Positions 4,991-26,457 are shown, counted from the stretch's first letter. The stretch is 64,000 nt of DNA from Acidobacteriota bacterium (GCA_040755995.1 JBFMAF010000003.1:64001-128000), one strand, 5' to 3'. The notes: generated by a model not told the origin, from the letters alone. Translations and numbers: made by a program.

Positions 4991-4998
4991 GAGCCGAG

Positions 4999-6114
4999 TC
5001 AGGCGCCCTTGCCCGCCTTGATCGTCCGAATGATCTTCTCTGTGAAGTCGGCTGCGTTGGTCACGGGCATTGCCGGCCTTCCGCACACTTGTACGTAGGC
5101 CCATGCGAGCTGTTCGCGGAATGGGCTGTCAATGGAGCAGACTCGTACGAAGTCGCGCCCGGCATCCCCGTCTGTTAGGTCGATGGCAGTCAACGGAACC
5201 AGATGAAGATCTTTCAGATCGACCGCCATCAGCGGGATGTGATCCGGGAGGCCCGGGAGGATTCTCACGCCTTCTTGTTGGTCGCGTGTGACCTCCTTCG
5301 GTAGCCTCTCTCGCAACTTCTTCTCAGCCGTCGTGGCGTCAAGACCCACCTTCTTGAGCCACTTCGAGACACGATCGCAGCGGGCAACCAGGGCCTTCTC
5401 GACCGCGCCCTGGCTCACAACCAGGTCGCAGGAAGGCGAAAGAACTACACGAAAGGCGCTTGGCTCGTCCGGGTCTCCCCTCGTTTCCCGCAGTATGTCT
5501 CCAGTCAACAGGTCCGAACTCAGAGGGGGATAGATGTACTGCTCCCAGGCTTGCATCCGCGTGCCCCCGTAGGTCGGCGAGTCAAACGAAGCCGCCAGCC
5601 GCCTGCGAGTGAGACGAACGAGAATATCGCGCCGGTCATTCTCATTCGCCGCCTCCTTCCATACCAGGAGGCTGACATGCCGGAGTGATTCGGCTGCCTT
5701 CATGGCGACTTCATCATTGAATGCACGAAGACTGTCGACATGGGTGCGGTATGATGCCAGCTTGTCAACCACTCGCTCCTGGCTGTCCGCTGTCTTGGGC
5801 TGGAAGCACACGAACGGATGCTGTTGTTTCCCCTCCAGGAACGTAGGCATGTCGCGGGCGCTGTGAACGACGACGGGGCAGAAGTGGACGTCCCAAATGT
5901 GCTCCCAGGTGGCCCCCGCACTTGCCGTCGATCCTGTTTGGTCCTCGAAGACGTCCATGATCACAGCATCGGGTCGCAGCGACTCCACAGTGGTCCTGGC
6001 TTTCTCGAAGCCCGTCCCCTCCACCTTGACGTCGTCCAAACGTGTTTCAAGAACCGACCTCAGACTGTCGATCATGGTGGGGTCGTCCTCGATGATGAGA
6101 ACAGTGAACCTCAT
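4999..6114 (-). CDS. Response regulator receiver protein with a non-HTH C-terminal domain
   Basis: LIIEDD and VIMDV receiver motifs; C-terminal LLTGDIL...VLSPSCDL domain; directly downstream of the kinase. Confidence 0.8.
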   Translation of the reverse strand: MRFTVLIIEDDPTMIDSLRSVLETRLDDVKVEGTGFEKARTTVESLRPDAVIMDVFEDQTGSTASAGATWEHIWDVHFCPVVVHSARDMPTFLEGKQQHPFVCFQPKTADSQERVVDKLASYRTHVDSLRAFNDEVAMKAAESLRHVSLLVWKEAANENDRRDILVRLTRRRLAASFDSPTYGGTRMQAWEQYIYPPLSSDLLTGDILRETRGDPDEPSAFRVVLSPSCDLVVSQGAVEKALVARCDRVSKWLKKVGLDATTAEKKLRERLPKEVTRDQQEGVRILPGLPDHIPLMAVDLKDLHLVPLTAIDLTDGDAGRDFVRVCSIDSPFREQLAWAYVQVCGRPAMPVTNAADFTEKIIRTIKAGKGA

Positions 6115-6123
6115 GTCAGTTGG

Positions 6124-8292
6124 TCACCTCGAAGCAATGGGCAGGTCGAACCTGAACGTTGCTCCGCCCAGCTTCCCGGGGCTCTTCACGCCCATCTTTC
6201 CCCCATGACCGAGGATTACTTCCGAGGCTATCGTGAGCCCCATCCCAAAGCCATTGGGGCGTCTCGTGACTCCCGGTAGGAAGATGCGAGTCTGGTCTTC
6301 CCGATCAACGCCCGGCCCCGAATCGTGTAGGAGGCACAGTATCCGCCCCGCCTCCCCTGTCGGCCGGGTTTCGAGAAGAATCCTTCGGGTCCCGTCCTTG
6401 GTGCGTCCCAGCCAGTACAACGTATTGTCGAGCAGGTTGTACAGCACAGTCCACAACTCACCGGGGTCGATCCTGAGCGAGTCAACACCCCTTAGGCTCG
6501 TATCGCACCTGACGCCCAGTTGGCGCAGTTCACCGCCCTTCGCTTCGAGGCATGCAGTCCATATCTCCCGTACAGACGCCTCGCGTTTGCCTCGCGCGAA
6601 GGTGCGACTCGCCAGAGGTCGGAACAACTCTGCCAAGCGACCCAGCGCCTGTACTGCTCGCTCGGCAAGCTCGGTGTGCTTCTGCAAGAGTGTAACATCG
6701 CGATTCGAACCCACGAAGAAGTCACGAACAAGCCGCAGGAACGCCCCGATGATGCTTACATTGTGCCCCACTTCGTGAACGAGTTTCTGAGCGATCGTCC
6801 CGATGCTAGCCAACCGGCTGTAGTAGCTGAACGTGGTCTGCAACTCCTTTTGGATCCGTTCTACCTTGCCGCCATAGTCCGCCAACAAGGGCACCATCTC
6901 GGAGGCAGACCCACCCTCTGCCACGACCTCCCGCGCCTGGGCGAGCAGTGGCTCCGGTGAGAGCTCGCGAAACATGTCGTGCATCGGCTTCTCCTCGGTT
7001 ACCTTGTCCTGGGCCCGTTCGGCCTCAAGGACACTGACCGTGTAGAGCAGCACATGTCGGAATTCCTTCGCCTCGGGTGTGTCAACGAGCCTCTCCCGAT
7101 CGCTCGTGTCCTCGATCTTCGTGTTCACCTCAGCCGAAATCGCAACATAGCCGACTATCTGGCTGGTACTTAGGCGACGCCCAACCAGGCTGACACGCCG
7201 AAGATCAAGGCCGAGCCAGTCCCGGTTCGTCTCGGACTTCGGCAGAACCAGGACCCCATCGCGATACAGAGAGAGACCTTTGAAGGACCGGATCTGACTC
7301 CTGAGATCCGAACGCGAAATGGAGAAGAGCTGTTCAGCCTCTTCGATGCTTTCCTTCTCAAAGTCCCAAGCGCGGACCTCGAAATCGAACGGCCCACACG
7401 TGGGCCTCAGCTCGTCTGCCACCTTGAAGTCGTAGTACCGCTCCAGGTCCGTCCGGATTTCGCGCCACGAGTAAGAGTTCCTCTGACGTGATCTGCCGCG
7501 TCCGTGGTATGGACGGAAAACATACTTGTACGACAGCTTTCCATCCGCCCCGAACTCACCCGTCAGGCGGTAGACCGGCTTGTCCAAGAACTCCGAGGTC
7601 TTGACCTCCATCGGGACCGCTAGCGAGCCGGGAGCCGTGAGGTAGATGGTGAAATCCAGCAGCTTGGAGAACGGTGATACCAAGCGGGAAAGCCCTTCAC
7701 GTAGCTCCTCCACTCGTTCGGGCGTCCACGAGGACTTCAGAAAGATGCGCAGTCTGGTTCCCGATTCGTGGGAGAGGTCCTCAGGTGGGTGTGCAGCACG
7801 GCGTGCAGAACACACGTTGATGTCTTGTGCGTTCGCGAGGTCATCCCATGACACATCCACCTTCCAGCACTGCCCGCCGGCGGTCTTCGTGACAAGTTCC
7901 AGCCGTGTCCCGAGTCTGGCGACCGACAGACGTCCCAGTCCCTTTGCGCCGGTCACGCGTCGCAGTGCATCTCCGCGCCTGGAGTGCTTCGCTGTCAGCC
8001 GGAATGGGGTTGCGACCGTGCACCATACCTCGTCTATGGTCTTGTCGTCCATGCCGTGGCCATTGTCTTCAACTTCGAGCACCGGCCGGCCAGTTTCGTC
8101 CTGGGTGAAGCGCACGTCAACTCTACGCGCGAAAGCGTCGTAAGAGTTCTTCACCTGTTCGATCACGGCAACGACATCGCTTGTGACGAGGTCGGCGCCC
8201 AGAGCAGCGAAGACACGCGGATGCAACTTGAATGGAACGTGAATCCCGGCTGGGCGTTCGCTCTCAGACTTGCTCTGAGATGCCATCTTCAT
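6124..8292 (-). CDS. GHKL (MORC/MutL-like) ATPase fused to a histidine kinase
   Basis: N-terminal EQVKNSYDA, DNGHGM, GAKGLGRLS; C-terminal HEVGH, NLLDN, DSGPG, GFGMGL. No TM segment. Start at 8292 or 8286. Confidence 0.9.
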   Translation of the reverse strand: MKMASQSKSESERPAGIHVPFKLHPRVFAALGADLVTSDVVAVIEQVKNSYDAFARRVDVRFTQDETGRPVLEVEDNGHGMDDKTIDEVWCTVATPFRLTAKHSRRGDALRRVTGAKGLGRLSVARLGTRLELVTKTAGGQCWKVDVSWDDLANAQDINVCSARRAAHPPEDLSHESGTRLRIFLKSSWTPERVEELREGLSRLVSPFSKLLDFTIYLTAPGSLAVPMEVKTSEFLDKPVYRLTGEFGADGKLSYKYVFRPYHGRGRSRQRNSYSWREIRTDLERYYDFKVADELRPTCGPFDFEVRAWDFEKESIEEAEQLFSISRSDLRSQIRSFKGLSLYRDGVLVLPKSETNRDWLGLDLRRVSLVGRRLSTSQIVGYVAISAEVNTKIEDTSDRERLVDTPEAKEFRHVLLYTVSVLEAERAQDKVTEEKPMHDMFRELSPEPLLAQAREVVAEGGSASEMVPLLADYGGKVERIQKELQTTFSYYSRLASIGTIAQKLVHEVGHNVSIIGAFLRLVRDFFVGSNRDVTLLQKHTELAERAVQALGRLAELFRPLASRTFARGKREASVREIWTACLEAKGGELRQLGVRCDTSLRGVDSLRIDPGELWTVLYNLLDNTLYWLGRTKDGTRRILLETRPTGEAGRILCLLHDSGPGVDREDQTRIFLPGVTRRPNGFGMGLTIASEVILGHGGKMGVKSPGKLGGATFRFDLPIASR

Positions 8293-8362
8293 GGGCGTCC
8301 TACGTTCGACCGGAACTAGCATCAAGAGTATCACGGAGTCCGATGTAGCGACAAGTGTGTCT

Positions 8363-8407: not shown

Positions 8408-9109
8408 TCAGAGAAAAAGCTCCTTCAGTTTCGCATCATCGCGCTTCAGATCATCTGGCGATCCATCGAAGGCCATCTTGCCGAGCTTCATCGAATACAC
8501 CCGGTTGCAGATTCCCAAGACTTGGCGGACTTTCTGCTCAACGACTAGAGTGGTGACTCCGCTCCCGCGGTTGATCTCTGCGATTGTCGCAAAAACGGTT
8601 CTGACAAGATCGGGCGACAGGCCGAGGGATGGTTCGTCAAGCATCAGCAGCTTCGGCTCAGGAACGAGAGCGCGCGACAACGCCAGCATCTGTTGCTGGC
8701 CGCTAGAGAGCCTGCCGGCGTCCTGGTTGATGCGCTCTTTGAGTGTCGGGAAAAGGTCCAACACGTACGCGATGCGTTCTCTGGCTGTCTTTCGTTGAAG
8801 CTGGTACCCCGCGATTTCGAGGTTCTCCATCACCGTTAGGTCGTGGAAGACGCGGCTTCCTTGGGGTGCGTAGACAATCCCGCGAGAGACGTTGTGCGCG
8901 GGCGTAGCACCTGCGGTCGACGACCCGCAAAAACGTATCTCGCCCTTCCATGGCGGAACCAAGCCGCACACGGCTTTCAGCACGGTGGACTTACCCGCCC
9001 CGTTGGGCCCTATGAGCGCTACGACCTCACCCTGACGGACCTCCAAGGACAGACCGAAAAGTACCTGCTTCTTGCCATATCCGGTCTCCAGCCTCCCGAT
9101 TTCCAACAT
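8408..9109 (-). CDS. livF: Branched-chain amino acid-type ABC transporter ATPase
   Basis: GPNGAGKS, LSSGQQQM and MLDEPSLGL motifs. Confidence 0.9.
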   Translation of the reverse strand: MLEIGRLETGYGKKQVLFGLSLEVRQGEVVALIGPNGAGKSTVLKAVCGLVPPWKGEIRFCGSSTAGATPAHNVSRGIVYAPQGSRVFHDLTVMENLEIAGYQLQRKTARERIAYVLDLFPTLKERINQDAGRLSSGQQQMLALSRALVPEPKLLMLDEPSLGLSPDLVRTVFATIAEINRGSGVTTLVVEQKVRQVLGICNRVYSMKLGKMAFDGSPDDLKRDDAKLKELFL

Positions 9110-9117
9110 CTGGATGC

Positions 9118-9876
9118 TCAGTCTATGTATGCTTCGATGACCCTAGGGTCGTTCCTGACCTCGTCGGGTGGACCCTCGCCTACCATGACGCCCGCGTCCA
9201 TGAAAATAGCCCGGTCGCACACCGTCATCACCGCATCGAGGTTGTGTTCGATGAGGATCACTGACTTGCCTCTCGACGGCAACCCACGGATTGTCGCCAG
9301 GATTCTCTCGGTCATTTCCGGCGCTATCCCAGCGACGGGCTCATCAAGAAGCAGCACCTCGGATCTGGCTGCCAAGCAGCATACAAGGCTCAGGATTTTC
9401 TGCTGTCCATAGGACAGCTCCACTGCCGGGTCACGTGCTTTGTGCGCCAAGCCTGCCTCCTCTAAGAGAGCCAGGGCCTGTTTCCGATGTTCATTCTCTC
9501 GTCCCCGAATGCGCCACCAGTTGAAGAATATGTTCCTCAGCTTCTCACCTGGCTGGTTTTGAAAACACAGTAATACGTTGTCTAGCACGCTAACCTGACG
9601 GATGAGACGAGGATTCTGGAAGGTCCGGCTGATCCCCTGGTTCGTGATGCGGTAGGGTGGAGCACCCGTGATGTCTTTGCCCTTGAAAAGAATCGTTCCG
9701 CGGTCGGGTGCTATGAATCCGGTCACGAGGTTGAAAAAGGTGGTCTTCCCGGCTCCGTTGGGGCCTATGAGTCCCAGTATTTCTCCATGCCGAAGAGAAC
9801 AGGAAAAGCTTGAAAGCGCCTTGACGCCATCGAAACGCTTGTCCACTGCTTGGACATCCAGCACCACTGCGTTCAT
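9118..9876 (-). CDS. livG: Branched-chain amino acid-type ABC transporter ATPase
   Basis: GPNGAGKTT, RTFQ, LSYGQQK, LLDEP and VIEAY motifs; TGATG overlap with the upstream permease. Confidence 0.9.
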   Translation of the reverse strand: MNAVVLDVQAVDKRFDGVKALSSFSCSLRHGEILGLIGPNGAGKTTFFNLVTGFIAPDRGTILFKGKDITGAPPYRITNQGISRTFQNPRLIRQVSVLDNVLLCFQNQPGEKLRNIFFNWWRIRGRENEHRKQALALLEEAGLAHKARDPAVELSYGQQKILSLVCCLAARSEVLLLDEPVAGIAPEMTERILATIRGLPSRGKSVILIEHNLDAVMTVCDRAIFMDAGVMVGEGPPDEVRNDPRVIEAYID

Positions 9877-10760
9877 CACCGGCCATCCACCCCAGGCAAC
9901 GTATACTCGCCCAGCAGCCCTCGCGGCCGCCACATCATGAACGCGACCAGTAGGCCACCGTAGAGAATCTGCCGGATGTCCGCGGCTGCTGAGCTGGGTA
10001 GCCCTAGAAACCGAATGAGCTCAGGGAGCAGTACCAGCACAGCCGCCCCAACCACGGGCCCCCAAAGGCTGCCGGCCCCGCCGACAATCACGGTGGAGAT
10101 GATGAAGATCGATTCCATAGTCGTGAAGCTGGTAGGATCGACGAAGCTGATATAGTAGGCGTGCATCACTCCCGCCGCAGCAGCCATACCTGCCCCGATG
10201 ATGAAGATTAGCACCTTGTAGGTGGCCACGTTCTTGCCGGCCGCTTGGGCGAAGATCTCATCTTCTCGGATGGCCTTCAGCACACGCCCGAACGGAGAAC
10301 GGACTATCCTCTGGGTCATGCTCAGGGTGATAGCGCAAACGATTCCGACAACTACAAGGAAGCCTACATGTGAGGAAATCGACAAGCCGAATAGCATCGG
10401 CTGAGGAACTCCCGGAAGGCCCATGGGACCACCGGTCAGAGCGACCCAGTTGTTGAAGACGCTGAATGTGATGATCTGGAACGCAAACGTCGCAATCACG
10501 AAGTAGTCATCGCGGATGCGTAGGGATGGGATGCCCACCGTCGCGCCGAGCAGGGCGCCAAGTATGATGGCGCAAACAAGGTTGATCAGGAAGCCACTAT
10601 GTACATTGAGCGCCATGAGCGCTGCAACATAGGCCCCAACACCGTAGAACGCTGCATGCCCGATAGAAAGGAGTCCGGTGTAGCCGGCGATGAGGTTGAG
10701 GGACACCGAGAGGATGACATAGATAGCTGCCAGGATCATGATATGCAGCACGTATTCCAT
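9876..10760 (-). CDS. livM: LivM-like ABC permease
   Basis: SLNLIAGYTGLLSIGHAAFYGVGAY, LTGGPMG and SPFGRVLKAIREDE motifs. Confidence 0.9.
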   Translation of the reverse strand: MEYVLHIMILAAIYVILSVSLNLIAGYTGLLSIGHAAFYGVGAYVAALMALNVHSGFLINLVCAIILGALLGATVGIPSLRIRDDYFVIATFAFQIITFSVFNNWVALTGGPMGLPGVPQPMLFGLSISSHVGFLVVVGIVCAITLSMTQRIVRSPFGRVLKAIREDEIFAQAAGKNVATYKVLIFIIGAGMAAAAGVMHAYYISFVDPTSFTTMESIFIISTVIVGGAGSLWGPVVGAAVLVLLPELIRFLGLPSSAAADIRQILYGGLLVAFMMWRPRGLLGEYTLPGVDGR

Positions 10761-10772
10761 CTTGCGTCTCTC

Positions 10773-11657
10773 TCACGCCGACGATTTTCTCAATCGCTTT
10801 CCCAGGATCCCTTGAGGGCGAAGCAGCAAGAAGGCCAACAACAAGAGGAAAGCTGCCGCTTCTTCCCAATGCGTTCCGAGATTCCAGCCAGCAAGCTCCT
10901 CAAGGAAGGCGAGGAGCAGAGACGCTACGGCCACGCCGATGGTCCTCCCGTTTCCGCCCACGACAACAGCCACCACTCCCTGCAACAGCATGGGCAGGCC
11001 CATAATAGGTGTCATCCCCACATCAAACGCTCGAAACAACCCCGTCGCACCTCCCAGGAATGACCCAAGGCAAAACGCAATCCCGATGATCTTGTCGCAG
11101 TCAATCCCGCTTACCCTCGCCAGTTCAGGGCTGTCTGCCACGGCTCTCAGAGCCAATCCGATCCTCATTTTGTCTACGAGAAAAATCTTGACGAACAGAA
11201 CTGCTACCGCGGCTCCCATCACCGCCACCTGGATGCTGGTTACACGGGCCCCCAGAAAGCTGTAAGAAGATGCAACTCCATGACCTGCAATGACCTTGGT
11301 ATCATCACCAAACGCAATCGATATGACGCTCTGAAGGACGGTATAAAGGCCGAGAGAGGCCAGCAACAAGACTAGCGGCGTCGCGCCGTCCCGCCTCAAC
11401 GGTCGGTATACGACCTTGTCAAGACTCCAGCCAAGTCCCGTACTAGCAGCCAGCGCGAGTACAACAGATGGCAAAGCCGACAGGCCGACCCACTGCGAAC
11501 AGGCCAAGCTCACGTACCCGGCGGTCGTGATGACTGCGGCATGGGCGAAATGGAAGAACCTGGCAGTCGAAAATGCTAACGAGAAGCTGATGCCCACCAA
11601 GAAGATGGTGGCAGCTGAGTAGAGGATGTTCGCCAGGAGCTGGGACCCTAGGGCCAC
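10773..11657 (-). CDS. livH: LivH-like ABC permease
   Basis: FHFAHA, GLALRAVAD, VVVGG and LRPQGILG motifs. Confidence 0.9.
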   Translation of the reverse strand: MALGSQLLANILYSAATIFLVGISFSLAFSTARFFHFAHAAVITTAGYVSLACSQWVGLSALPSVVLALAASTGLGWSLDKVVYRPLRRDGATPLVLLLASLGLYTVLQSVISIAFGDDTKVIAGHGVASSYSFLGARVTSIQVAVMGAAVAVLFVKIFLVDKMRIGLALRAVADSPELARVSGIDCDKIIGIAFCLGSFLGGATGLFRAFDVGMTPIMGLPMLLQGVVAVVVGGNGRTIGVAVASLLLAFLEELAGWNLGTHWEEAAAFLLLLAFLLLRPQGILGKRLRKSSA

Positions 11658-12922
11658 TTGGTGACACCGTTCAGTAGGTGGTCGACAACCACACCCACCT
11701 GGTCCTTCGGAACTACATACGGGGCCTCCCTACCATCGAGAGCCGAGAGATCGTTCTTGAACTTGCGGCCCCCTTTGTTTTCAGCCTCCTTGATCAGGTC
11801 ACTTGGGGTTGCAAACAACCTGTCGCAGAGCCCAAGCTCCACCGCCTTTTGCAGGTACGCAAAAGGCTTCCACCTTGCGTCGTTATCGTCGACATCCAAC
11901 AGAATCTGGGCCCTTTTCTCCCCGGGATCCCAGGATATCCCTATGCGTGTCCCTTGGACTTCGTAAAGGCCATAGTCGCCCCTTAACGCCTGCCCCAGTT
12001 CCGAGCGCTTGCCTATCTCTTTCAGTTGGGTAGCTTGGTCTGCTCTGTTCTCACCTACTTCGAGCATGCCCGGGTGGGAGAACCACAACTTCGTCCCTTG
12101 GAACTTGCTGAGGAACCTCCTCAATGCTTCGCGAACGTCGATGATACAAGTTCCATCCTGGTTATCGATCATGAGCCAGGCCGGGCTGGTTGTGACCTTG
12201 GCCACTAGCTCGGTAGATATGATGCTTAGCTTGTCCTCAAGGAGGAGTGTGTTGTAGAGGTTTGTGGGGAGATAGACGATGCGCAGAGCAGCGCCCTCAT
12301 AGGTACAGAACGCTGCCCATGGTGCTGGGTCCCCCCCTGTGTGCTCTCCAACAGAATGATAGACTGGTGAGAATGGGCATGTCCAATAGATACGTTCGAA
12401 GAGCTTGCCTTCCATGATGTCTTTGAGAGTTCCCTTGTAGCTATCCTTGTCCATGGCGAACTCCAGCGCGCCAAATGTCGCGCGGCCAAAGGCATGTAGG
12501 CATCGGGCCATCACGTATCGTGTTCGATGTGATCCAGCGCCCCTGACATGTAGCTGACGTAGCAAGCGGCCCAATGGCCTCTCATTGGGTGGTGCAGTGT
12601 CAGTGAGGTACATCAAGAGCGACCACTCTCGCCCAAACCCCGCTGCCACCTCTGCTTGCCAGTGGCTTTCGAGCTCGCGACACGCGCTCTCTGAGACAGC
12701 CCGCGCCAGATGCTTCGCCATCAAGTTGGCCAGTTCGATGACGAGCGTGAGCGCAGCCAATGTGTAGCCGAGTATCGATGCCAGGCGGTCGAATCGACCA
12801 AGATCCGCAAAGGCATCCCAACCGCCGATCACCAGTCCGAAGAAGATTATCAAGAAGGGCAACCAGGGAGAACGGCTCCCGCTCCACCACTCAAACGCGC
12901 GATACAGGTGGTCTTCTCTCAC
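11648..12922 (-). CDS. Hypothetical protein with two N-terminal TM helices and a soluble domain
   Basis: 424-aa ORF with GAGGAGG RBS, overlapping both neighbours; hydrophobic N-terminus. Confidence 0.75.
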   Translation of the reverse strand: MREDHLYRAFEWWSGSRSPWLPFLIIFFGLVIGGWDAFADLGRFDRLASILGYTLAALTLVIELANLMAKHLARAVSESACRELESHWQAEVAAGFGREWSLLMYLTDTAPPNERPLGRLLRQLHVRGAGSHRTRYVMARCLHAFGRATFGALEFAMDKDSYKGTLKDIMEGKLFERIYWTCPFSPVYHSVGEHTGGDPAPWAAFCTYEGAALRIVYLPTNLYNTLLLEDKLSIISTELVAKVTTSPAWLMIDNQDGTCIIDVREALRRFLSKFQGTKLWFSHPGMLEVGENRADQATQLKEIGKRSELGQALRGDYGLYEVQGTRIGISWDPGEKRAQILLDVDDNDARWKPFAYLQKAVELGLCDRLFATPSDLIKEAENKGGRKFKNDLSALDGREAPYVVPKDQVGVVVDHLLNGVTKWP

Positions 12923-13751
12923 GACCCCCTCCTCTAGACCCGTGGCTCCGACCGACCGCAGACTTTCTGGCCATCAGAATCGCCGCACTGGAGCGAGCAG
13001 CGTGGAACGCGTTTCCTGACCAGCTGCCCAGAACACAGATGTCGCCCTTGTCGAATCCGACCTGCACGAGCATGGAAGCCAATTCCTCCGCGGTGTACAG
13101 CCGAATCTTGAATGGAAGCTGCGTCACCTCGCTACCCGATTCATATTCGTAACTGCCAACCCACACGTGCCCGTCCTCCACGATCTTGGACCGCTTCCGG
13201 TACCGTAGGTGGTCGGCAAGGCCGCGTTCCTCGTTCAGCCTCCAACGTACCTGCCTCGCCCCGAAATTCACCTGTTCAAGTATGAAATACCCACCCGGCT
13301 CCAAGACCCGGAAAGCTCCTTCCAGTACTGACATATTCTCATCATGATCGGCGAAGTACCCCCACGACGTATCAAGGCACACCGCAAGTCTGTATTCCCT
13401 CGGCGGCCACCTCCAAGTCCGCAAATCCGCGAGTGTCAGCGTCACCTGCTTGCGTGCAGCTGCCGCACGCCGCAGCGCTTCCGAAAGCAATTCCGCCGAT
13501 TGATCAACACCGTGAACCAAGAATCCTTCTCGCGCGAACGCTAAACAGTGTCGGCCGTAACCACACGCGAAATCTATCACCGGGCCAGGAGGGTTGATGC
13601 CGGTCAGGCGCGAGATGCTCCTGGCTTGCATGGCTGCGACACGTCGTGGCTTCCGAATCTGATCGACAAGGGCATACCTGAGATCAAACAGGTCCACATA
13701 CCAATCGTCTGGAACCGATCTCCAGTCATGTTGCCAGTCCAAGGCACTCAT
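12891..13751 (-). CDS. Class I SAM-dependent methyltransferase
   Basis: IDFACGYGRH, GVDQS, TSWGYF and LEPGG motifs; ATGA overlap with the rSAM stop. Confidence 0.9.
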   Translation of the reverse strand: MSALDWQHDWRSVPDDWYVDLFDLRYALVDQIRKPRRVAAMQARSISRLTGINPPGPVIDFACGYGRHCLAFAREGFLVHGVDQSAELLSEALRRAAAARKQVTLTLADLRTWRWPPREYRLAVCLDTSWGYFADHDENMSVLEGAFRVLEPGGYFILEQVNFGARQVRWRLNEERGLADHLRYRKRSKIVEDGHVWVGSYEYESGSEVTQLPFKIRLYTAEELASMLVQVGFDKGDICVLGSWSGNAFHAARSSAAILMARKSAVGRSHGSRGGGRERRPPVSRV

Positions 13752-14938
13752 TGTCGCACACCCAAGTTGAACGGGATGGTGTCACCGCGACGAGTACTCA
13801 CAAGATCAGGTGCCGATGAATGGCAGGTCGAGACCCGGCTGTCTAAGTAGAGGCACCTGTCGATCGTCCCGCTGAGGCATCTCTTGTGCATTGGCCCGCC
13901 GTGACAGAAGGACCACTCCTCGCACTGTGCACAAGGTCCCGTCTTCTTCCACTCGGCACGACGGAACGGTTCGTATCTGCCCTCCCAAACATCCTTGATT
14001 CGCTCACGGCGAAGGTCACCTTGCACGAAGCTACGTGAGATATTGCTGCAGGAGCTGAGTTTGCCATCAAATAGAACTCCAAGGTTGTTAAGCCCCGCAA
14101 TACAGTGAAACACAAAAGGGCGCAGACGGCCCTCCAACTCGGGGCCCATCCATCCGCCGCAGCCCAATTCCACCATGGTCACCGAGGAATCAGAGTAGTT
14201 CGAACACGAGCGCTCGTATTCCTGGCGGAGGAAACCGATGACCTCTCGCACTTGGTTCGCAGTCGGATAGAGATCCGAATTGCCCTGCGCACGTCCCTGC
14301 TTGTCGATGATCATCACCCTGAAGACCCTTGGTCGGATTTCCTGCTTCGCGAAACGATGAAACGCCGGGAGTTCGTGGATGTTCTTGGAGTGGGCCACGA
14401 AGGAGACCGTCACCACGTATCCGGCGTCAACCGCGAGGCGGGCGGCGTCGGTCGCCTTCGCCCACGTTCCTGGTTGGCCCCTCAAGGAATCGTGGCTTGA
14501 CTCAAAGCCATCGATGCTGATCCCCAAGCCGGTTACTCCCAGACTACTCAGTTCCTCGAGCACGCCCGGATTGTCGGAGAGGAAGACGCCATTTGTCTGG
14601 ATGTCGATGTTTCGATAGAAGGGCCAATGCGAGATGGCCCGTAGCACATCAAGGAGATCACGGCGAACGAACGGTTCGCCGCCCGTAATGTTGATGTGCC
14701 GGAACCGGTCCATGTCGAAATCGCGGGCGATCTCATCGAAGGCTCCGACAACTTCGTCGGTGGAGAGTTCGTCTGAGCTACTCACCTCCTCGCCTGGTGA
14801 GCCGCAGTGCAAACATCGCAGGTTGCATCGTCGAGTTGCTTCCCAGCTGATGATCTGGAGGGGGTGCTCCCTTATGAGGGCTTCAATCCGAGTCCTCCAG
14901 GTCTGGAAGAGAGCTCTTAGGTCCTCACCACGATTCAC
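13748..14938 (-). CDS. Radical SAM/SPASM enzyme (TIGR04133-like)
   Basis: CNLRCLHC, TGGEP; SPASM-type CIAG...SSC...CAQCEEWSFC. Confidence 0.9.
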   Translation of the reverse strand: MNRGEDLRALFQTWRTRIEALIREHPLQIISWEATRRCNLRCLHCGSPGEEVSSSDELSTDEVVGAFDEIARDFDMDRFRHINITGGEPFVRRDLLDVLRAISHWPFYRNIDIQTNGVFLSDNPGVLEELSSLGVTGLGISIDGFESSHDSLRGQPGTWAKATDAARLAVDAGYVVTVSFVAHSKNIHELPAFHRFAKQEIRPRVFRVMIIDKQGRAQGNSDLYPTANQVREVIGFLRQEYERSCSNYSDSSVTMVELGCGGWMGPELEGRLRPFVFHCIAGLNNLGVLFDGKLSSCSNISRSFVQGDLRRERIKDVWEGRYEPFRRAEWKKTGPCAQCEEWSFCHGGPMHKRCLSGTIDRCLYLDSRVSTCHSSAPDLVSTRRGDTIPFNLGVRQ

Positions 14939-15138
14939 TTGGCGAATACCACCTTGAAGTACTCGTTGCCGTCATCATTCGGGTGGCAGCCGTACATGTT
15001 GTTCACGTATTCCACTGGACTGGGCCATTCGAGCATCCGCTTTTTGAACTTGAGCACCTCCTCTTCACTCGCTGCGGGACGTTCACAGGCCTGATGGTCT
15101 TCGACCGCCTGGGATGTACGCCGTATCTCGATCCGCAT
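14935..15138 (-). CDS. 67-aa peptide, candidate rSAM precursor or partner
   Basis: AAGGAG RBS; stop overlaps the rSAM start (GTGA); fills the gap between the binding protein and rSAM genes. Confidence 0.75.
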   Translation of the reverse strand: MRIEIRRTSQAVEDHQACERPAASEEEVLKFKKRMLEWPSPVEYVNNMYGCHPNDDGNEYFKVVFAK

Positions 15139-15149
15139 TGGCTATCTCC

Positions 15150-16283
15150 TTAGCTGATGTCGACAGCTTGGCCGTTCTTGATGGTCTTCTTGCCGAAGGC
15201 CTCGGACTTGAGATCACCGTTGGGGCGGAAAGCGACTTCACCCGAAACTCCTTGGAAGGAGATCGCCAACAAGGCTTCGCGCACCTTCTCGGGGTCTGTA
15301 GTGCCAGCGGCCTCCATTGCCTTGAAGATGGCCATCGCTGCGTCGTAGGCATAGCATCCAAACACGTCCGGTTCCTCCCCATACTTGCCCTTGTATCGCC
15401 GGGCGAATTCATCAAATGTGGGGCTCGTACTCCCGGAAGGCGACGTGTAAAAGACACCTTCTGCCCCATCCCCGGCGACATTGCGAAATTCGGGAGACCC
15501 CCAATTGTCGCCTCCGAATAGTGGGACATTTAGGCCGAGTTCCTTCATTTGCCGCACAAACACTCCACCCTCTTTGGGGTAAGTAGGAGAGACTACCGCA
15601 TCAAGCATCTCCATTCCCTTGAGCTTTGCGATGATCGTGCGGAAATCTGCCGTGTTCTCCTGGACGCCTTCTGCATTGATCACCTGTCCGCCCAAGGCTT
15701 GGAATCTCGTCTGAAACCCCTCTGCGAGCGGCTTACCCCATGAGTTGTTCGTATAGACCACCGCGACTCTCCTTGCACCGGACTTGAAGACCCAGCCGCT
15801 CAGCACTTCTGCCTGCAAGTCATCGGCGGGAACGGTCCTGAAAAAGAATTCACCGCCCCGAGTCGAAAGCTGGGAAGATGAGGAAACGGGCGACATGAGA
15901 ACGACCTTGTACCTGGTCGCAAGGGGAGCAACGGCAAGACTCACGCCGCTCCCGGCCGAGCCAAATACGACGGGCACCTTGTCGATGGTGGCGAATTTAG
16001 TCATGATGCTGACCGCCTCTTTCTTGTCGTTGCGGTCATCCTGAAAGTCTACCACGATAGGCTTGCCGAATAGGCCGGCTTTGGCGTTCTGATCCTCCAC
16101 GGCCAACTCAATCCCGCGCTTCGCCTTCTGGCCGTATGAAGCAACCTCGCCAGTGAGGGGGAATGTCGCCCCGAGTTCAATCCTGTTGGAGGAGGGAGCC
16201 CGTGGCCTTGTTACCAGCAAGGCTACGGCGACGACGCCTACTACGAGGATCGCTGCTGCTACCCATCCCTTTCCTACCGTCAT
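15150..16283 (-). CDS. LivJ/K-type ABC substrate-binding protein
   Basis: N-terminal TM anchor; GATFPLTG, FFRTVPAD, YAYDA and FQGVSG motifs. Confidence 0.92.
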   Translation of the reverse strand: MTVGKGWVAAAILVVGVVAVALLVTRPRAPSSNRIELGATFPLTGEVASYGQKAKRGIELAVEDQNAKAGLFGKPIVVDFQDDRNDKKEAVSIMTKFATIDKVPVVFGSAGSGVSLAVAPLATRYKVVLMSPVSSSSQLSTRGGEFFFRTVPADDLQAEVLSGWVFKSGARRVAVVYTNNSWGKPLAEGFQTRFQALGGQVINAEGVQENTADFRTIIAKLKGMEMLDAVVSPTYPKEGGVFVRQMKELGLNVPLFGGDNWGSPEFRNVAGDGAEGVFYTSPSGSTSPTFDEFARRYKGKYGEEPDVFGCYAYDAAMAIFKAMEAAGTTDPEKVREALLAISFQGVSGEVAFRPNGDLKSEAFGKKTIKNGQAVDIS

Positions 16284-16607
16284 CGAGTTTCTCCTTCCAA
16301 GAAGATCTGCTTCGTTTCACCGCAACGCCGATTGCGACTCCGTAGAAAACGACTGAGTGCGACGTCGATTGCCGGCCGCCACTCCGCTCCGGTGCTGGTT
16401 GCTCTATTGGCAGGGCTTCGCACCCCGCTTTCATGCACGTGACGAAGGATAGTGCGTTCCCGCCTGCAACAAACCTGCCCTGTCTCTTCACCAGCCCGGT
16501 AAGTGTCCTGTGGCAGGTCGTCGGGTTCGCCGGCGTCAGATCGCCCTCGTTCTCGTCACAGAGATCCGCCGATGGCGGCACCTGACGTCGTCTAGTAGCC
16601 TGCCGGC

Positions 16608-17024
16608 TCAAGCGTCGCTGGCCCGGCTGTTGAGAAGCCATTTCTTGTAATTCACAATGTCGCTCTTCGCGGACTCATGTGCCACGAGCGCAGCGAAGGC
16701 GGATGCCAGGCCGGCGACCCACAGGGCAATATCACGCAATCCCCATAGGAAGACGAAAGCAACCATAGCCAAGAGCGTCTTCACGCCATTCCTGCCAAAT
16801 CGGAACCCCGAGACCGCCAGGACCAATACTATCACCATGTGGGGGAGATCGCCCAACCCGATCTCATGCAGATCGGCAAGGCTTATCCTTCGGGAATGGA
16901 CGAGGGCGAGAAGCCGGGGGTCGGAGGCGAGGGGCAGCGCGACTGAGCACACGAGAACCCACGCCAACAGCCGGTAGTGTTTGATGGGTCGAAGCTCTCC
17001 CTCACGAGCTGCGAACACACTCAT
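16608..17024 (-). CDS. Small hypothetical membrane protein
   Basis: 138 aa with 3-4 hydrophobic segments. Confidence 0.5.
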   Translation of the reverse strand: MSVFAAREGELRPIKHYRLLAWVLVCSVALPLASDPRLLALVHSRRISLADLHEIGLGDLPHMVIVLVLAVSGFRFGRNGVKTLLAMVAFVFLWGLRDIALWVAGLASAFAALVAHESAKSDIVNYKKWLLNSRASDA

Positions 17025-17312
17025 CCTACCCCGCCATGATTGCTTGCTTCCAACATTCCCGCAGCCTACCTGATCCCTACCGGCAAAGCCGCACTACAAA
17101 CCGTCTCGTATCATATCACGAGAGCGCGAGGACGCGGGACTCTCTTCTTCCGTACCACCCCGTGCGTGATCGCCGTTTCTAGTCCGCGCTTCCTGCGCCG
17201 TTGGCACGGGTCGGCTCACTTGAAGACAACCCGTGTGATCGCCGCACTGTCCAACGGTCTGAACCGGACAAACACCGACGGCATGTTCAGGTTTGTCAGG
17301 CAGTCCGTGTTG

Positions 17313-18200
17313 CTATCTCTGCTCATGTCTGATGAAGGTCAAGATCGAAGGGCACTCGTCGGTAATCATACAAAGGACTAGCACCAGACCGACGACTCGG
17401 AAGATCCCATCCGATTTCTCAACGAGCGCATTCACTAGGACCCTTACATTGGGGCGGGCGATCGCCCGATCGATCTCAACCTGCAAAGCTTCGACCAAGG
17501 ACGGGACCAAGCTCTGACCGCGTGCCGTATCCACTCTCCGAATGCCGGCCACACCGGCCAACCATGTCTGGAGCTTCTGTGCGATGTCGGTCGCCTCTCT
17601 GAAGGTTATGGCCGAGCCCACCCCAGGCGCGGCACCCACGTGCTCCCTCGAGTTGCATGAAAGGAAGATCGGCAGTTTCCCCTGCTTCGTTGCCTCCCTG
17701 GCTAGGCCAAGCAGGCCGAGCCCACTGCCGTCAGGAAGCCGGAGAATCCCAGCGGCGTTGTGCCCGATGATAAGAACGATCTTGGCGGGTGCATTGGCGA
17801 TCGCCTTCCTCAGCACTTCGTCGCCACCCGTGTTCTCCAGGAATCTAAGCTCCGCGAAAGTACTGAGGAGATTCTGCTTCGCCTCCAGTAGTTCATCCGC
17901 TCTTGTCTGGCTGTAGACAGCTTCGTGACCGAACACGTTCTTGAACGGCACCTCTTCGGTGGGCACGATGGCGACCACCGCGACAGTTCGTAGGTCGGAC
18001 GCCGACAACACCGGAAAGGACAGCCGATTCGGATCCACCGCAACGTTGGGTGCAAGACGTTCCGTGAACTCCTCAGGCGATGTTCGTGCGAAGAGCTTCG
18101 AACATTCCTCACTTGTCGCCGAAGTCGGTACCCCGATGAGCAGAATCGCAAGTCCTGCAGAAGCGATCCCATCGCAGCTGCGCATGATCACGCACCTCAT
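17313..18200 (-). CDS. Exported protein with a possible divergent CHAT/caspase-like domain
   Basis: Signal-like N-terminus; LIIGHN and IFLSCNS strand-His / strand-Cys motifs. Confidence 0.55.
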   Translation of the reverse strand: MRCVIMRSCDGIASAGLAILLIGVPTSATSEECSKLFARTSPEEFTERLAPNVAVDPNRLSFPVLSASDLRTVAVVAIVPTEEVPFKNVFGHEAVYSQTRADELLEAKQNLLSTFAELRFLENTGGDEVLRKAIANAPAKIVLIIGHNAAGILRLPDGSGLGLLGLAREATKQGKLPIFLSCNSREHVGAAPGVGSAITFREATDIAQKLQTWLAGVAGIRRVDTARGQSLVPSLVEALQVEIDRAIARPNVRVLVNALVEKSDGIFRVVGLVLVLCMITDECPSILTFIRHEQR

Positions 18201-18201
18201 C

Positions 18202-18564
18202 TCAGCGAATCGCTAGATAGGCACGCAGGAGACTCTTGATTCCCGCGGGAGACGCACCCAGCTGCAGATCGCCACGATCGAGGAAGGCCGTGCCGACCTT
18301 CTTCATGAGGAGTGGGAATGCAAAACCGAAAAGCATGGCCGTTCGCGCAGTCGGCCAAGGATCTCCGTGAAACCAATAGTATGCGCCGGGCCCAGCGATA
18401 CCAATCATCACGATAGTGATGCCCCAGTAAGCGATCGACCGTCGCAATCGGCGGTACTTCGCGAGCTCCAATCTCTCTCTGACCTCCCAGTGGTGAATAG
18501 CCTCCTGGATTAGAGAGCCGAAGCAGGACGCAACCATGACCTCGAACCCTGTCTCAAGGCTCAT
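18202..18564 (-). CDS. 120-aa three-TM protein
   Basis: GAGGTGG RBS before ATG 18564; three hydrophobic segments. Confidence 0.7.
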   Translation of the reverse strand: MSLETGFEVMVASCFGSLIQEAIHHWEVRERLELAKYRRLRRSIAYWGITIVMIGIAGPGAYYWFHGDPWPTARTAMLFGFAFPLLMKKVGTAFLDRGDLQLGASPAGIKSLLRAYLAIR

Positions 18565-18581
18565 ATTTCCACCTCTCTGCC

Positions 18582-20372
18582 TCAGTGTCCCTGGCCTGCC
18601 TGCGACCAGACGCAATCCAGAAGCCCGACGGGCATCTGCAAGTGGGATGCCATCCATTCCCTGACATTCGTGGCGAACACTCTCCGATCAAACGAGTACA
18701 CTGCTGGGGCACTCTCCACCGCGGCCCCATCAGCGACCAAGTAGTGTGGCCCGGGCAGTGCCGCGACCCAGTCGGGATCGAAAAACGGAGTATCCCCGGT
18801 ATCCCTCCGTAAGACGGAGGTGCGGAGCGAAGCTTCCTCCACCGACATGCCTTCCTCCTCAAGGGTCTTGCGCACATCTGTCCACTCATCGCATAGGAAG
18901 AATACGAAATCGACGTTGTCAAGATACCCTGCGAGCCGGATGTCCCTGACCACCCGTACGAACTGCTGTGAGTAATGGCACCAGGATGCGACTGCGACCG
19001 GAATCTGATTGACTCCGATGATCAGATCGCGCTCCTGCCCAGCTTCGATGACCGGGACTGCTCGCTGCTCGACCTCTCTCTCCCAGTCGGCGAGCGGATG
19101 GCTCGAGCGTGACAATGCGGTGAGCAGGTCAGAGGCGATGTCTGGGGAATGATCGGCGATTTGGCGGAGGCGACGCTCGAAACGAGCAGGCTGTGGCCCG
19201 AGCCGTCCCAGAAGGGATGCTGCGGCTGTCCGAACCTCGGGGTACCTGCTCTGCATCATTTTCTCGACTGACGGCCACGCCCGCGAGAGGTCAACTCCGT
19301 GCGCTGCGAGCAACTCGAGTGCGCGGAGCTGCACGGTGGGATCCCAGTCGGTCAACGCTTTCACGACAGTGTCTCGGAAATCCGTGCCGCAAGCGCCGAT
19401 CGAGTTGAGGGCATCGAGGGCCGCGGCCCTCACCTCTCCCAGTGGGGCGACGGTGAGCCCGAGAAGGGCCGGAATTGCATCTTCCGCCCCGCGACCAATC
19501 GACTTCAGCGCACCGGCTGCCGCCACCTGGACATCGGTGTCATTATCCGTGAGCAGCGATACCAGGGAACTGACAGCGGCGGGTCTCTCCCGAAGCTCCT
19601 CTGCCTCGGCCCTCTTGTCAGCAGCCAACTCCTCGGGGGAGAGGAAGACTTTCTGCAGGGCTTCTGCCAATTGGCTCGTCGTCCTATCGGCATGAATCTG
19701 GCCAAGCGCTGCAGCCGCCTTCACCCGGACCGACCAATTCTGGTCTCGTACCATGCCTCGGATGGCAGCCAGCGCTGGGACTGCGTGTATGTCGAAGGAG
19801 GCCAGCGTTTCCAAGGCCATCTCTTTCACCCACGGGTGCTCATCACTCAGACTGCTGGCTACCATCTCTACCAGGCGATCATCGGGCGTAGCGAGTTTCG
19901 CGGCGTACTCTGCTGCTGCTGCACGCACGCTTAGAACCGGATCGCGCAGTAGGCTGCCGAGCGCATCTACGCTGCCCCTGGGACTGGCACGACCCAGGGC
20001 CTTCGGCACAGCGGCGCGAACCTCGGCCACCGGGTCTCTTGCCGCATCTAGCAATACTCCTCCCACCTGCTCTGGGGCTTGTGGGTGCGCCGCGAGTACT
20101 TCGACTGCGAGCAGCCGGATGGAAGGGTCTGGGTGCTTGACGGCCGCAACCAGCGACGGTACGATGCAAGCCGGAACGACGGCGTCTTCCTCAGCGAGGC
20201 GCTCCAGCGCAGGGGCAAGAACTGCCGGATCGCACCCCGCGAGTATCTCTACATTGTCTTGTCGAGCTGACGCAGGCACGTTGATGACGGCGAGTACCAA
20301 GAGGCCCGAAATGAGTGTGCTGAACTCTCCTGGCTTTGCTGCGGTACCCGAGGGCGTGGCGTGGATTCGCAT
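18582..20372 (-). CDS. Exported HEAT-repeat protein with a C-terminal thioredoxin-like (WCHYS) domain
   Basis: AAGGAG RBS before ATG 20372; repeated D...VR.AA..ALG units; VAVASWCHYS. Confidence 0.8.
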   Translation of the reverse strand: MRIHATPSGTAAKPGEFSTLISGLLVLAVINVPASARQDNVEILAGCDPAVLAPALERLAEEDAVVPACIVPSLVAAVKHPDPSIRLLAVEVLAAHPQAPEQVGGVLLDAARDPVAEVRAAVPKALGRASPRGSVDALGSLLRDPVLSVRAAAAEYAAKLATPDDRLVEMVASSLSDEHPWVKEMALETLASFDIHAVPALAAIRGMVRDQNWSVRVKAAAALGQIHADRTTSQLAEALQKVFLSPEELAADKRAEAEELRERPAAVSSLVSLLTDNDTDVQVAAAGALKSIGRGAEDAIPALLGLTVAPLGEVRAAALDALNSIGACGTDFRDTVVKALTDWDPTVQLRALELLAAHGVDLSRAWPSVEKMMQSRYPEVRTAAASLLGRLGPQPARFERRLRQIADHSPDIASDLLTALSRSSHPLADWEREVEQRAVPVIEAGQERDLIIGVNQIPVAVASWCHYSQQFVRVVRDIRLAGYLDNVDFVFFLCDEWTDVRKTLEEEGMSVEEASLRTSVLRRDTGDTPFFDPDWVAALPGPHYLVADGAAVESAPAVYSFDRRVFATNVREWMASHLQMPVGLLDCVWSQAGQGH

Positions 20373-20802
20373 TGTGTCCTTCTCCTTGTAATCTAGCCAT
20401 TGCCAGCCGAAGGCCTGGGCCGCGGCCAGCATGCGCGTTCGGCGATGCCGACCCCGGCTTCGGGGGGCGGACTCGCTAGGTACTGCGTGGCCGTAAAACG
20501 GATCGAAGGTAGCCGTTCTTGGGCTCCAGAACTTCGGCGGGCCTCGCACACGGCATGCCTTCGTCTGGAGCGCCCAGCGCTTGGCTTGAAGCAAGCGGCA
20601 AGAGATCGATCTCCGCATTGGCATAGCTTTCCACATCGTTCCCGAGTCGAGACGCCGTATGTCCGCGCGCTGGGCTATCATCTCCTTTCCCGGGCGATCT
20701 CCAGATGTGGCCCCTCGCAGCATTCGCGCATTCCTATCACCACCTGTAGCCGGACTTAGCGGTGGCCGTGGTTCGTCCCAAATGGTCCACCCCCTGCACC
20801 TT

Positions 20803-23654: not shown

Positions 23655-23674
23655 GGCTCGCTGTCCTCGGTTTC

Positions 23675-24262
23675 CTACTTCTTGGACCGCGCCGCTTTGA
23701 CGAAACGACGATCCCGGGCGCGGAGCCACAGGTAGCAGAGGACTAGCGAGCCCCAGAAATACACGCTCACTATCAGCCAGCCCGTGAAGAAGGGGTGTGA
23801 CCAGAAGGAGTAGAACTGCCCGGCCTCGTACTTGTCCATGGTGCTGGCGATGTTGAACGTGATCTTGCGTGTCGCCAGAACTATGACTCCGATCAGGACG
23901 GCCATGGATATGTACCCGATGCGAACCCAGAGGTCGCGGCCCTGTCTGAGCCAGCGCCTGCCGATCTCGAAACCGATGTAGGCCGGCCCCGCTGTCAGCA
24001 GAAATACCGCGAACGACACCGCAGCTCTCAGCGGGCTGTCGTGCAGGTTGTCCTGCCAGCGCCATAGGAAATTCACTTCCCAGGCGGGCCACCCCATGAA
24101 GAAGTAGAACGGAATTGGAGTAATGAAGAACACGGCAAACAAGAGCACCGTCGTCCGCATGAAGTAGTGGCGGTTCTGGTTGTCGCTCTTGAGCATGTTC
24201 TTGCCGGCTTCCGCAAGCGCTAGCCCGGAAAGCAGGGCGACCGGAACATCAATGGCCAACAT
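23675..24262 (-). CDS. Membrane protein, paralog of 24323-24940
   Basis: About 5 TM segments; IDVP...GWPAWE. Confidence 0.8.
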   Translation of the reverse strand: MLAIDVPVALLSGLALAEAGKNMLKSDNQNRHYFMRTTVLLFAVFFITPIPFYFFMGWPAWEVNFLWRWQDNLHDSPLRAAVSFAVFLLTAGPAYIGFEIGRRWLRQGRDLWVRIGYISMAVLIGVIVLATRKITFNIASTMDKYEAGQFYSFWSHPFFTGWLIVSVYFWGSLVLCYLWLRARDRRFVKAARSKK

Positions 24263-26455: not shown

Positions 26456-26457
26456 GT

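Follow-up and report, generated by a model that had tools for sequence, protein, structure and literature searches.

A small protein with a conserved Met-Tyr-Gly site and its radical SAM/SPASM enzyme are linked to a Liv-type importer across phyla

Background

Why does an operon for a Liv-type ATP-binding cassette (ABC) importer carry, between its binding-protein gene and its permease genes, a small protein and a radical S-adenosylmethionine (SAM) enzyme with a SPASM domain? The operon that raises this question is located at positions 8408-16283 of a 64,000-nucleotide stretch of DNA from an Acidobacteriota bacterium (GCA_040755995.1 JBFMAF010000003.1:64001-128000, or G000:C3:64001-128000 in our own numbering), which was analysed as a whole and is called the window here. 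The source genome has a size of 7.7 Mb and is 99.8% complete. An initial annotation had read nine genes in the order binding protein, open reading frame (ORF) of 67 amino acids (aa), radical SAM/SPASM enzyme, SAM-dependent methyltransferase, 424-aa membrane protein, livH, livM, livG, and livF, and had proposed an undescribed system that either makes and re-imports or senses a peptide-derived small molecule, or imports a substrate and modifies it. The ORF calls bear out this order, with all nine genes on the minus strand.

Results

Conservation of the gene pair and of its link to the importer

The small ORF (protein P0001) spans 14935..15138 on the minus strand and is preceded by a ribosome-binding site, AAGGAG, seven nucleotides before its ATG. 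Its stop codon overlaps the GTG start of the radical SAM/SPASM gene (13748..14938, minus strand). The pair formed by these two genes is conserved across phyla, and so is its link to a Liv-type binding protein and LivHMGF. A scan with an alignment of the enzyme, covering one genome per species, mostly returned unrelated radical SAM enzymes, together with five true orthologues (55-64% identity) from a Deltaproteobacterium, a Thermodesulfovibrionia metagenome-assembled genome (MAG), a Sedimentisphaerales MAG, and two archaeal MAGs. The small ORF lies directly upstream of the orthologous gene in all five, and the binding protein precedes the small ORF in all three bacterial loci. A metagenome scan with the small-protein alignment contributed 80 more loci, giving a total of 85. 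Of the 77 loci with at least 500 nucleotides of room, 72 have the radical SAM gene as the immediate downstream neighbour of the small ORF; the other five comprise L145, in which it is located upstream, L100, with a match of only 33% identity, and L122, L155, and L160, with none in the flanking DNA available. On the upstream side, 74 loci have room, and in 57 of these the small ORF is immediately preceded by the binding protein; in L151 the latter was missed by the distance rule, its match being an overlapping one. At least two liv genes follow downstream in 15 of the 17 binding-protein-positive loci with at least 7 kb, the two exceptions, L126 and L129, being near-identical. The order is livGF, binding protein, small ORF, and radical SAM gene in L148, L151, and L163, and thus the association survives rearrangement. 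The initial annotation had named homologous radical SAM genes without the small ORF and the transporter among the findings that would speak against a joint system, and the loci contain the reverse. Because the arrangement recurs in dozens of unrelated contigs it is far beyond chance, and the unit is very probably functional.

The small ORF was found in none of 400 other genomes sampled from the phylum of the window, two of which belong to the same family, and, within the order around the Sedimentisphaerales MAG (G401), in two of 201 genomes, one of the two being that MAG. It is single-copy in the four genomes checked. Such a rare and patchy distribution of a very conserved sequence is as expected for a mobile accessory module.

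Some loci have unusual surroundings. In L122 a Liv-type binding protein and LivHMGF come after the small ORF, and the 20 kb available contain no radical SAM gene. In L155 and L160 the small ORF has an intact motif and stands alone: in L155 it is flanked by an Fe-hydrogenase-like gene on one side and a DUF4344 metallopeptidase on the other, and in L160 its neighbours, RNA polymerase and NusA-like genes, are encoded on the other strand. A divergent protein of about 320 aa with two AsnC-type helix-turn-helix (HTH) domains (double Lrp/AsnC) adjoins the small ORF in L122, L146, L150, and L161. These proteins match the NirDL-like HTH weakly; a heme-pathway reading of the archaeal loci was considered and set aside, and the proteins were taken as regulators. 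The archaeal-looking loci that lack a binding protein often carry a B12-binding radical SAM enzyme or a methyltransferase.

The small protein

In a search of 5.8 billion protein clusters, 136 relatives of the small protein were identified, all of them unnamed and between 54 and 96 aa long. The small protein has no match in any of the family libraries used here and below, which are Pfam 2025, NCBIfam 20.0, and PADLOC. In an alignment of 30 sequences the first about 25 residues vary in sequence and length while the remainder is almost fixed, with the near-invariant core FKKRMLEWPNPVE[YF]VNNMYG[C/S]HP...EYF. In full, the core reads FKKRMLEW-P-[NS]PVEYVNNMYGCHP-(acidic run, 4-6 residues)-EYFKVVFAK, and within it a module of 14 residues is near-invariant throughout the family. 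Motif counts were taken over 120 listed members of the 136 relatives. Met-Tyr-Gly is present in all 120 members, Tyr-Gly is followed by Cys in 107 of them, by Ser in 12, and by Ala in one, and the Met, Tyr, Gly, His, and Pro of the site are unvaried. In P0001, Met-Tyr-Gly occupies residues 48-50 and the Cys residue 51. The C-terminal tails that follow the motif are of variable length. One relative, P0175 (metagenome, 83 aa), contains the NPVE..YGCHP module in two tandem copies, one with MYG and one with IYG, which sit between a single FKKRML helix and a single C-terminal YF tail.

In degree of conservation the small protein roughly equals the radical SAM enzyme and the binding protein. When 68 distinct DNA versions of its core are compared in pairs, the differences at codon positions 1, 2, and 3 are 0.14, 0.14, and 0.53, so that third positions are about four times more variable than the first two. 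This pattern indicates selection on the small protein, and, judged by it, the small ORF is a real, selected gene family. An AF2 model of the small protein alone is of low confidence (pLDDT 56.5) with a disordered N-terminus, and contains a helix at residues 25-36 (pLDDT about 70) upstream of the Met-Tyr-Gly site. A disordered and variable N-terminus, a predicted helix, and a near-invariant module that is duplicated in P0175 together resemble the anatomy of a substrate, and the small protein is likely to be the substrate of the radical SAM enzyme.

The radical SAM/SPASM enzyme

The enzyme contains the Radical_SAM and SPASM domains of Pfam, and in the family alignment the CX3CX2C motif (C38, C42, and C45) as well as seven further cysteines are invariant. 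The search returned 741 relatives, of which the best 120 show 60-75% identity and are spread across phyla. Few relatives are named; these belong to Zixibacteria, Deltaproteobacteria, Sedimentisphaerales, and Phycisphaerae MAGs. The best NCBIfam family is TIGR04133 with 217.7 bits over residues 16-354, below the cut-off of 425, and the families of NirJ, AhbC/D, and MoaA are also among the NCBIfam matches. More distant relatives with solved structures are SkfB, PqqE, and MoaA, and also the anaerobic sulfatase-maturating enzyme (anSME) 4k37, with which the enzyme profile can be aligned over the full length (E 1e-10) at a weak score of 40-44 bits. An RRE domain or PqqD-like match was not obtained with Pfam for any protein of the operon, and in the enzyme itself the radical SAM domain already begins near residue 30, which leaves too little space for an RRE domain.

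The closest paralogue in the same genome (G000:C16:87868-88824; L002:1417-2580) shares 30% identity with the enzyme. Its best family is TIGR04103, with 213.9 bits, below the cut-off, and it also scores 171 bits on TIGR04133. Ten nucleotides after it, at L002:2590-2931, starts a 113-aa ORF with three sites of the form X-Tyr-Gly-hydrophobic-Pro, MMYGLP, LRYGLIP, and MKYGIAP, and the two genes are likely to represent a separate spliceotide-type pair. A large methyltransferase-like ORF is found upstream of the paralogue. Since the paralogue's best family is TIGR04103 and an X-Tyr-Gly ORF adjoins it, the wider clade nearest to the enzyme of the operon appears to pair with Tyr-Gly substrates, in keeping with the splicease-like reading discussed below.

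The Liv-type transporter

The full parts list of a HAAT (Liv) system is present in the operon, and the same set is found in the related loci. The first gene (15150..16283, minus strand) encodes the substrate-binding protein (Peripla_BP_6, E 4.7e-57), which starts with an N-terminal hydrophobic anchor or signal. The two permeases are LivH/UrtB-like (10773..11657, minus strand; BPD_transp_2, E 8.9e-28, with UrtB and LivH matches below cut-off) and LivM-like (9876..10760, minus strand; BPD_transp_2, E 1.5e-47, LivM subfamily 183 bits versus a cut-off of 366). They are followed by a LivG-like ATPase (9118..9933, minus strand; ABC_tran and BCA_ABC_TP_C, LivG 208 bits versus 362) and, as the last gene, a LivF/UrtE-like ATPase (8408..9109, minus strand; ABC_tran, UrtE 207 bits versus 286 and LivF 189 bits, also below cut-off). 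The alignment with the LivG family begins at residue 21, and the true start may therefore be located downstream of the GTG at 9933. All five transporter proteins remain below the cut-offs of the NCBIfam Liv/Urt equivalogs, including the binding protein against the LivJ-type subfamily (166 versus 477).

The nearest solved structures of the binding protein are the amino-acid binders 4gnr, 3td9, 3ipc, and LivJ. It is 25-26% identical to LivJ and LivK of Escherichia coli, and its orthologues are 50-85% identical across phyla. In an alignment of LivJ and LivK with eleven orthologues it has Ser, Ser, Tyr, and Asp at the columns of LivJ Ser79, Thr102, Tyr202, and Glu226, which we take to be the residues holding the amino and carboxyl groups of the ligand. 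Other pocket positions differ from LivJ, for example an invariant Trp in place of Tyr150, and the family of this binding protein has its own fixed motifs. Because the presumed anchoring residues are kept, we predict that the imported ligand is an amino acid or closely resembles one, not necessarily Leu, Ile, or Val. Compared to the LivJ/LivK-LivHMGF system of Escherichia coli, parts and order are the same, with the binding protein first, but here three to four extra genes are inserted between the binding-protein gene and livH.

Operon architecture

The nine genes form one tight operon. The gap between the binding-protein gene and the small ORF measures 11 nucleotides, and the small ORF and the radical SAM gene, as well as the radical SAM gene and the methyltransferase gene, share four-nucleotide overlaps of the GTGA/ATGA type. 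The 424-aa ORF and livH overlap by 10 nucleotides, and the gaps between livH and livM and between livG and livF are 12 and 8 nucleotides long. The spacing of 12 nucleotides or less given in the initial annotation is therefore correct for most junctions, but not for those of the methyltransferase gene with the 424-aa ORF and of livM with livG if the longest ORFs are used. These overlap by 32 and 58 nucleotides, respectively, and both values hinge on the choice of the start codon. Eight of the nine operon proteins are named by Pfam or NCBIfam; the 67-aa and 424-aa ORFs are without a family, and even this radical SAM enzyme scores below the curated cut-offs.

Upstream of the binding-protein gene, about 320 non-coding nucleotides (16284..16607, minus strand) presumably represent the leader and promoter region. 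In a sequence scan of the operon and the region before it, sigma-70-like sites did not exceed chance and no noteworthy terminator was detected, and no riboswitch or other Rfam family was found there at E<=1, the single match, elsewhere, being at chance level. For positions 13700-16300 no sequencing run was listed, and no RNA data set either. The genes flanking the operon in the window were sought in the related loci and were absent from all of them, including the gene next after livF (6124-8334). The unit thus spans from the binding-protein gene to livF. A defence-system reading was considered and rejected: PADLOC gave just generic radical SAM (viperin) and methyltransferase matches for the operon.

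The variable slot between the radical SAM gene and livH

Neither the methyltransferase nor the 424-aa protein belongs to the core of the system. The stretch from the radical SAM gene to livH, called the slot here, is complete in 24 loci, the window included, and carries interchangeable cassettes. In eleven loci it contains a protein of about 510-660 aa with N-terminal hydrophobic segments together with a B12-binding radical SAM enzyme, in six a single protein of 390-460 aa with two transmembrane helices, in five a third family, with or without a fourth, and only in two, the window and L090, a class I methyltransferase with the 424-aa protein. The initial annotation had placed the methyltransferase in its cassette and listed the 424-aa protein in the gene order, but as conserved parts the two do not hold across the family. 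Of the 24 complete loci, only the window and L090 have a relative of the methyltransferase in the slot; a handful of incomplete loci have one as well (L010, L126-130, L144). One or the other kind of methylase occurs in 13 of the 24 loci, so that methylation seems to be frequent but not universal.

The methyltransferase of the window (12891..13751, minus strand) is a class I SAM-dependent enzyme (Methyltransf_25, E 8e-15) with a weak match to the daptide methyltransferase family (49 bits, cut-off 175). The 424-aa protein (11648..12922, minus strand) belongs to no known family: it has no Pfam match even at E<=1, no NCBIfam match, and just two relatives besides itself among the 5.8 billion clusters, and it is common to L090 only among the related loci. 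A hydropathy scan located hydrophobic segments at residues 20-39 and 47-65, and the protein is predicted to have two N-terminal transmembrane helices and a domain of about 350 aa facing the cytoplasm. Its AF2 model, built from four sequences, has a pLDDT of 42.5, and in the ESM Atlas the best feature score (0.87) and the structural TM (<=0.27) were both at chance level. The unnamed slot proteins fall into five groups with no similarity between groups by BLAST and hhalign probabilities of at most 1.4%, and Pfam searches at E<=1 with 15 slot proteins gave chance-level matches only. A short 'TC..SP' string common to two of the groups was not counted as homology. In the Thermodesulfovibrionia MAG (L010:4663 onward) the radical SAM gene is followed by an 875-aa ORF in which a domain of about 470 aa without a family is fused to a class I methyltransferase. 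This domain also stands alone in L144, and no hydrophobic segment is predicted in the fusion.

Neighbouring genes in the window

Just below the operon, at 3914-8334 (minus strand), the window encodes a 736-aa protein with two HATPase_c-type domains and a weak PADLOC match to a type II restriction enzyme, a 371-aa ORF without a family, and a C-5 cytosine DNA methylase. This trio looks like a restriction-modification or defence module, and it is not common to the related loci. On the other side, a 748-aa HEAT-repeat protein (18582-20828, minus strand) is located upstream of three ORFs without a family (16608-18657). An Oxidored_FMN protein is encoded at 22320-24092, and the stretch 24960-29025 (minus strand) encodes an 855-aa glycyl radical enzyme of the PFL-like kind and, nearby, a 336-aa radical SAM activase-like protein that carries a ferredoxin-type insert. 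The glycyl radical enzyme, the activase-like gene, and the Oxidored_FMN protein point to an anaerobic lifestyle.

Discussion

Comparison with known systems

Like the pair described here, the spliceotide systems have a radical SAM/SPASM enzyme beside a small protein with an X-Tyr-Gly site, either together with a Y protein (PlpX, PcpX) or as binary systems (RhaX, RcsX, RasX). In the cited passages, spliceases are described as radical SAM/SPASM enzymes that cut at X-Tyr-Gly, with MYG and LYG among the natural sites (PMC11414181, PMC10533398, PMC11626197). Cyanobacterial type I spliceases are reported there to need a small Y protein (PMC11414181, PMC11626197, PMC11002830, PMC10849128), while the binary spliceases, according to the relevant passage, have no Y protein, a leader helix serving instead (PMC11414181). 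The splice tags ...LYGLPI and ...GYGVVFP are among those listed as tested (PMC10533398, Table 1); the corresponding string here is MYGCHP. The PlpX family is represented by TIGR04103 and, as named in PMC11002830, by IPR026482. Met-Tyr-Gly, the site found here, is also one of the sites spliced naturally in PlpA, PcpA, and RcsA. A separate RRE protein is missing, which is likewise the case in the binary spliceases. A helix is predicted upstream of the site, and one relative has two copies of the module. In contrast to the spliceotides, however, the enzyme is only a distant relative of PlpX, the small protein is near-invariant across phyla and lacks a Nif11 or NHLP leader, and the pair is accompanied by neither a protease nor an exporter but sits inside the operon of an ABC importer.

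The best curated radical SAM family, TIGR04133 ('rSAM_w_lipo', a hypothetical equivalog), is reached with about half its cut-off score, and no operon protein matches a partner lipoprotein family in NCBIfam at E<=0.01. A small conserved peptide beside a radical SAM/SPASM enzyme is likewise found in the PqqA/PqqE/PqqD and MftA/MftC/MftB systems. In such peptide-derived cofactor pathways, conservation of the core would follow from the fixed product. Unlike pyrroloquinoline quinone and mycofactocin synthesis, the operon has no PqqD or RRE and none of the follow-up enzymes, and the radical SAM enzyme scores 87.8 bits against PqqE (TIGR02109, cut-off 381) and 95.9 bits against MftC (TIGR03962, cut-off 265).

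A proposed mechanism

By analogy with the spliceases, we consider the chances about even that the operon encodes a splicease-like system, in which the radical SAM enzyme edits the Met-Tyr-Gly-(Cys/Ser)-His-Pro site of a cytoplasmic protein that is coupled to a HAAT importer. The enzyme would act on the small protein at this invariant site. The most likely chemistry is tyramine splicing, to which we would give slightly less than an even chance: a tyramine unit would be excised at X-Tyr-Gly, and an electrophilic alpha-keto-beta-amino acid would be left in the backbone. In the source genome the class I methyltransferase may add a lineage-specific methyl group, a step for which the relatives would have the B12-binding radical SAM enzyme or no methylase at all. 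The small protein has no export signal or cleavage motif, and the conserved gene set contains no protease or exporter in the loci examined. The edited small protein is therefore predicted to stay in the cell, where it would work jointly with the importer and with the membrane-anchored product of the gene immediately ahead of livH. A real functional coupling to import is, on the whole, somewhat probable. A more specific version, which we regard as improbable, is that the 67-aa protein becomes a carrier of a backbone alpha-ketoamide through the radical SAM enzyme. It would then serve at the importer's inner face as a carbonyl cofactor of the pyruvoyl-like kind that is made by the ribosome. In this case it would, with its membrane-anchored partner, capture or transform the imported amino-acid-type ligand.

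Several points weigh against the splicease-like system. The match of the enzyme to the PlpX family TIGR04103 reaches 84.3 bits of the required 725 and ranks twelfth among the NCBIfam matches, and its best family, TIGR04133, is uncharacterised and its cut-off is also missed. Most of the loci (80 of 85) were found through the small ORF itself, and they are not independent but include near-duplicates, with 68 distinct sequences among the 82 cores recovered. The small ORF has no radical SAM gene within the available flanking DNA in L122, L155, and L160, and 16 of the 74 loci, most of them archaeal-looking, are without the binding protein. The class of the ligand depends on LivJ contacts that are presumed as such. 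The alternation of Cys and Ser beside Tyr-Gly fits a chemistry on that residue equally well. Finally, we know of no link between a ketoamide protein and an importer.

Alternative explanations

The enzyme might act on the Cys or Ser that follows Tyr-Gly, producing formylglycine or a thioether or ether link to another residue, although this is unlikely. The position is almost exclusively Cys or Ser and is followed by the invariant His-Pro, and the string resembles the Cys/Ser-x-Pro start of the sulfatase motif, Cys/Ser-x-Pro/Ala-x-Arg. The full-length alignment with anSME and the complete SPASM cysteine set would suit such a reaction as well. However, the one member with Ala departs at exactly this residue, while Met, Tyr, Gly, His, and Pro are unvaried; the Arg of the sulfatase motif is replaced by Asp, Gly, or Asn at +4; the anSME family TIGR03942 is absent from the best 25 NCBIfam matches of the enzyme; and the match to anSME is weak (40 bits). 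Alternatively, the enzyme might transform the imported small molecule, and the 67-aa protein would then not be a substrate but an adaptor, carrier, or activator. SPASM/twitch enzymes for small molecules exist (NirJ, AhbC/D, and MoaA, which are all among the matches), neither an RRE nor a protease or exporter is conserved, and a degree of conservation similar to that of the enzyme and the binding protein would be in line with an accessory subunit. Against this, the small protein alone is poorly ordered in the AF2 model, its module is doubled in P0175 as in multi-core precursors and holds the X-Tyr-Gly site of a known radical SAM reaction, and the small ORF and the radical SAM gene occur without a nearby transporter gene in the archaeal-type loci. 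We therefore judge a role as accessory subunit to be quite unlikely.

That the product is a secreted peptide made on the ribosome and modified after translation (RiPP), or a small molecule derived from a peptide, for which the small protein would be a precursor to be cut and released, and that the Liv-type system re-imports it or a signal made from it, corresponds to the makes-and-re-imports version of the initial annotation. A slot with alternative tailoring enzymes (class I methyltransferase, B12-binding radical SAM enzyme) is reminiscent of natural-product clusters, the distribution is rare and patchy (0/400; 2/201 including G401), and a small product resembling a beta-amino acid would suit an amino-acid-type pocket. 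But in the loci examined no protease, exporter, or leader-cleavage motif is conserved, the core is almost identical from bacteria to archaea, which is unlike the cores of antibiotic-type RiPPs, and HAAT systems are importers, so that a re-imported peptide product is very unlikely. The small ORF could also be a regulatory leader or ribosome-arrest peptide, which would sense an amino acid and control the translation of the overlapping radical SAM gene. The conserved part comprises the about 40 C-terminal residues, which is roughly the length of the exit tunnel, with an N-terminus that is free to vary; it includes a Pro and then an acidic run, and the stop codon overlaps the radical SAM start. 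Yet the small ORF follows the radical SAM gene in L145 and stands alone on the strand opposite to its neighbours in L160, the C-terminal tails after the motif are of variable length, and the module is doubled in P0175, which leaves regulation by arrest with hardly any probability.

Conclusions

The literature searched contains no account of this arrangement, in agreement with the initial annotation, which had called it undescribed; the enzyme family might, however, be among those in the survey of splicease types by Scott et al. 2022 (Chem 8:2659), which is reported to include 27 validated spliceases. No paper was found for the core motif strings, nor any that relevantly joins SPASM enzymes or RiPPs with Liv-type binding proteins. 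Probably new is the context, genetic and perhaps also functional, in which a splicease-like radical SAM enzyme is combined here with a presumed X-Tyr-Gly substrate. Radical SAM enzymes are known to edit peptides on the way to secreted natural products and to a small number of cofactors, while here the editing would concern a cytoplasmic, near-invariant mini-protein tied to an importer. Anaerobic bacteria of many phyla, most of them uncultured, have the linkage, and the pair of peptide and enzyme is also found in very small archaeal genomes. The slot, with its class I methyltransferase, B12-binding radical SAM enzyme, and at least five unrelated membrane-anchored proteins, represents a natural experiment in the diversification of cassettes. 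The system is small enough for direct testing, with two genes to co-express and one binding protein to screen. If the excision of tyramine is true, these cells would use a built-in electrophilic ketoamide intracellularly, for a purpose that has not been described. If in addition the reading as a ketoamide carrier is true, backbone splicing would be newly used in a primary-type metabolism and not for secreted inhibitors.

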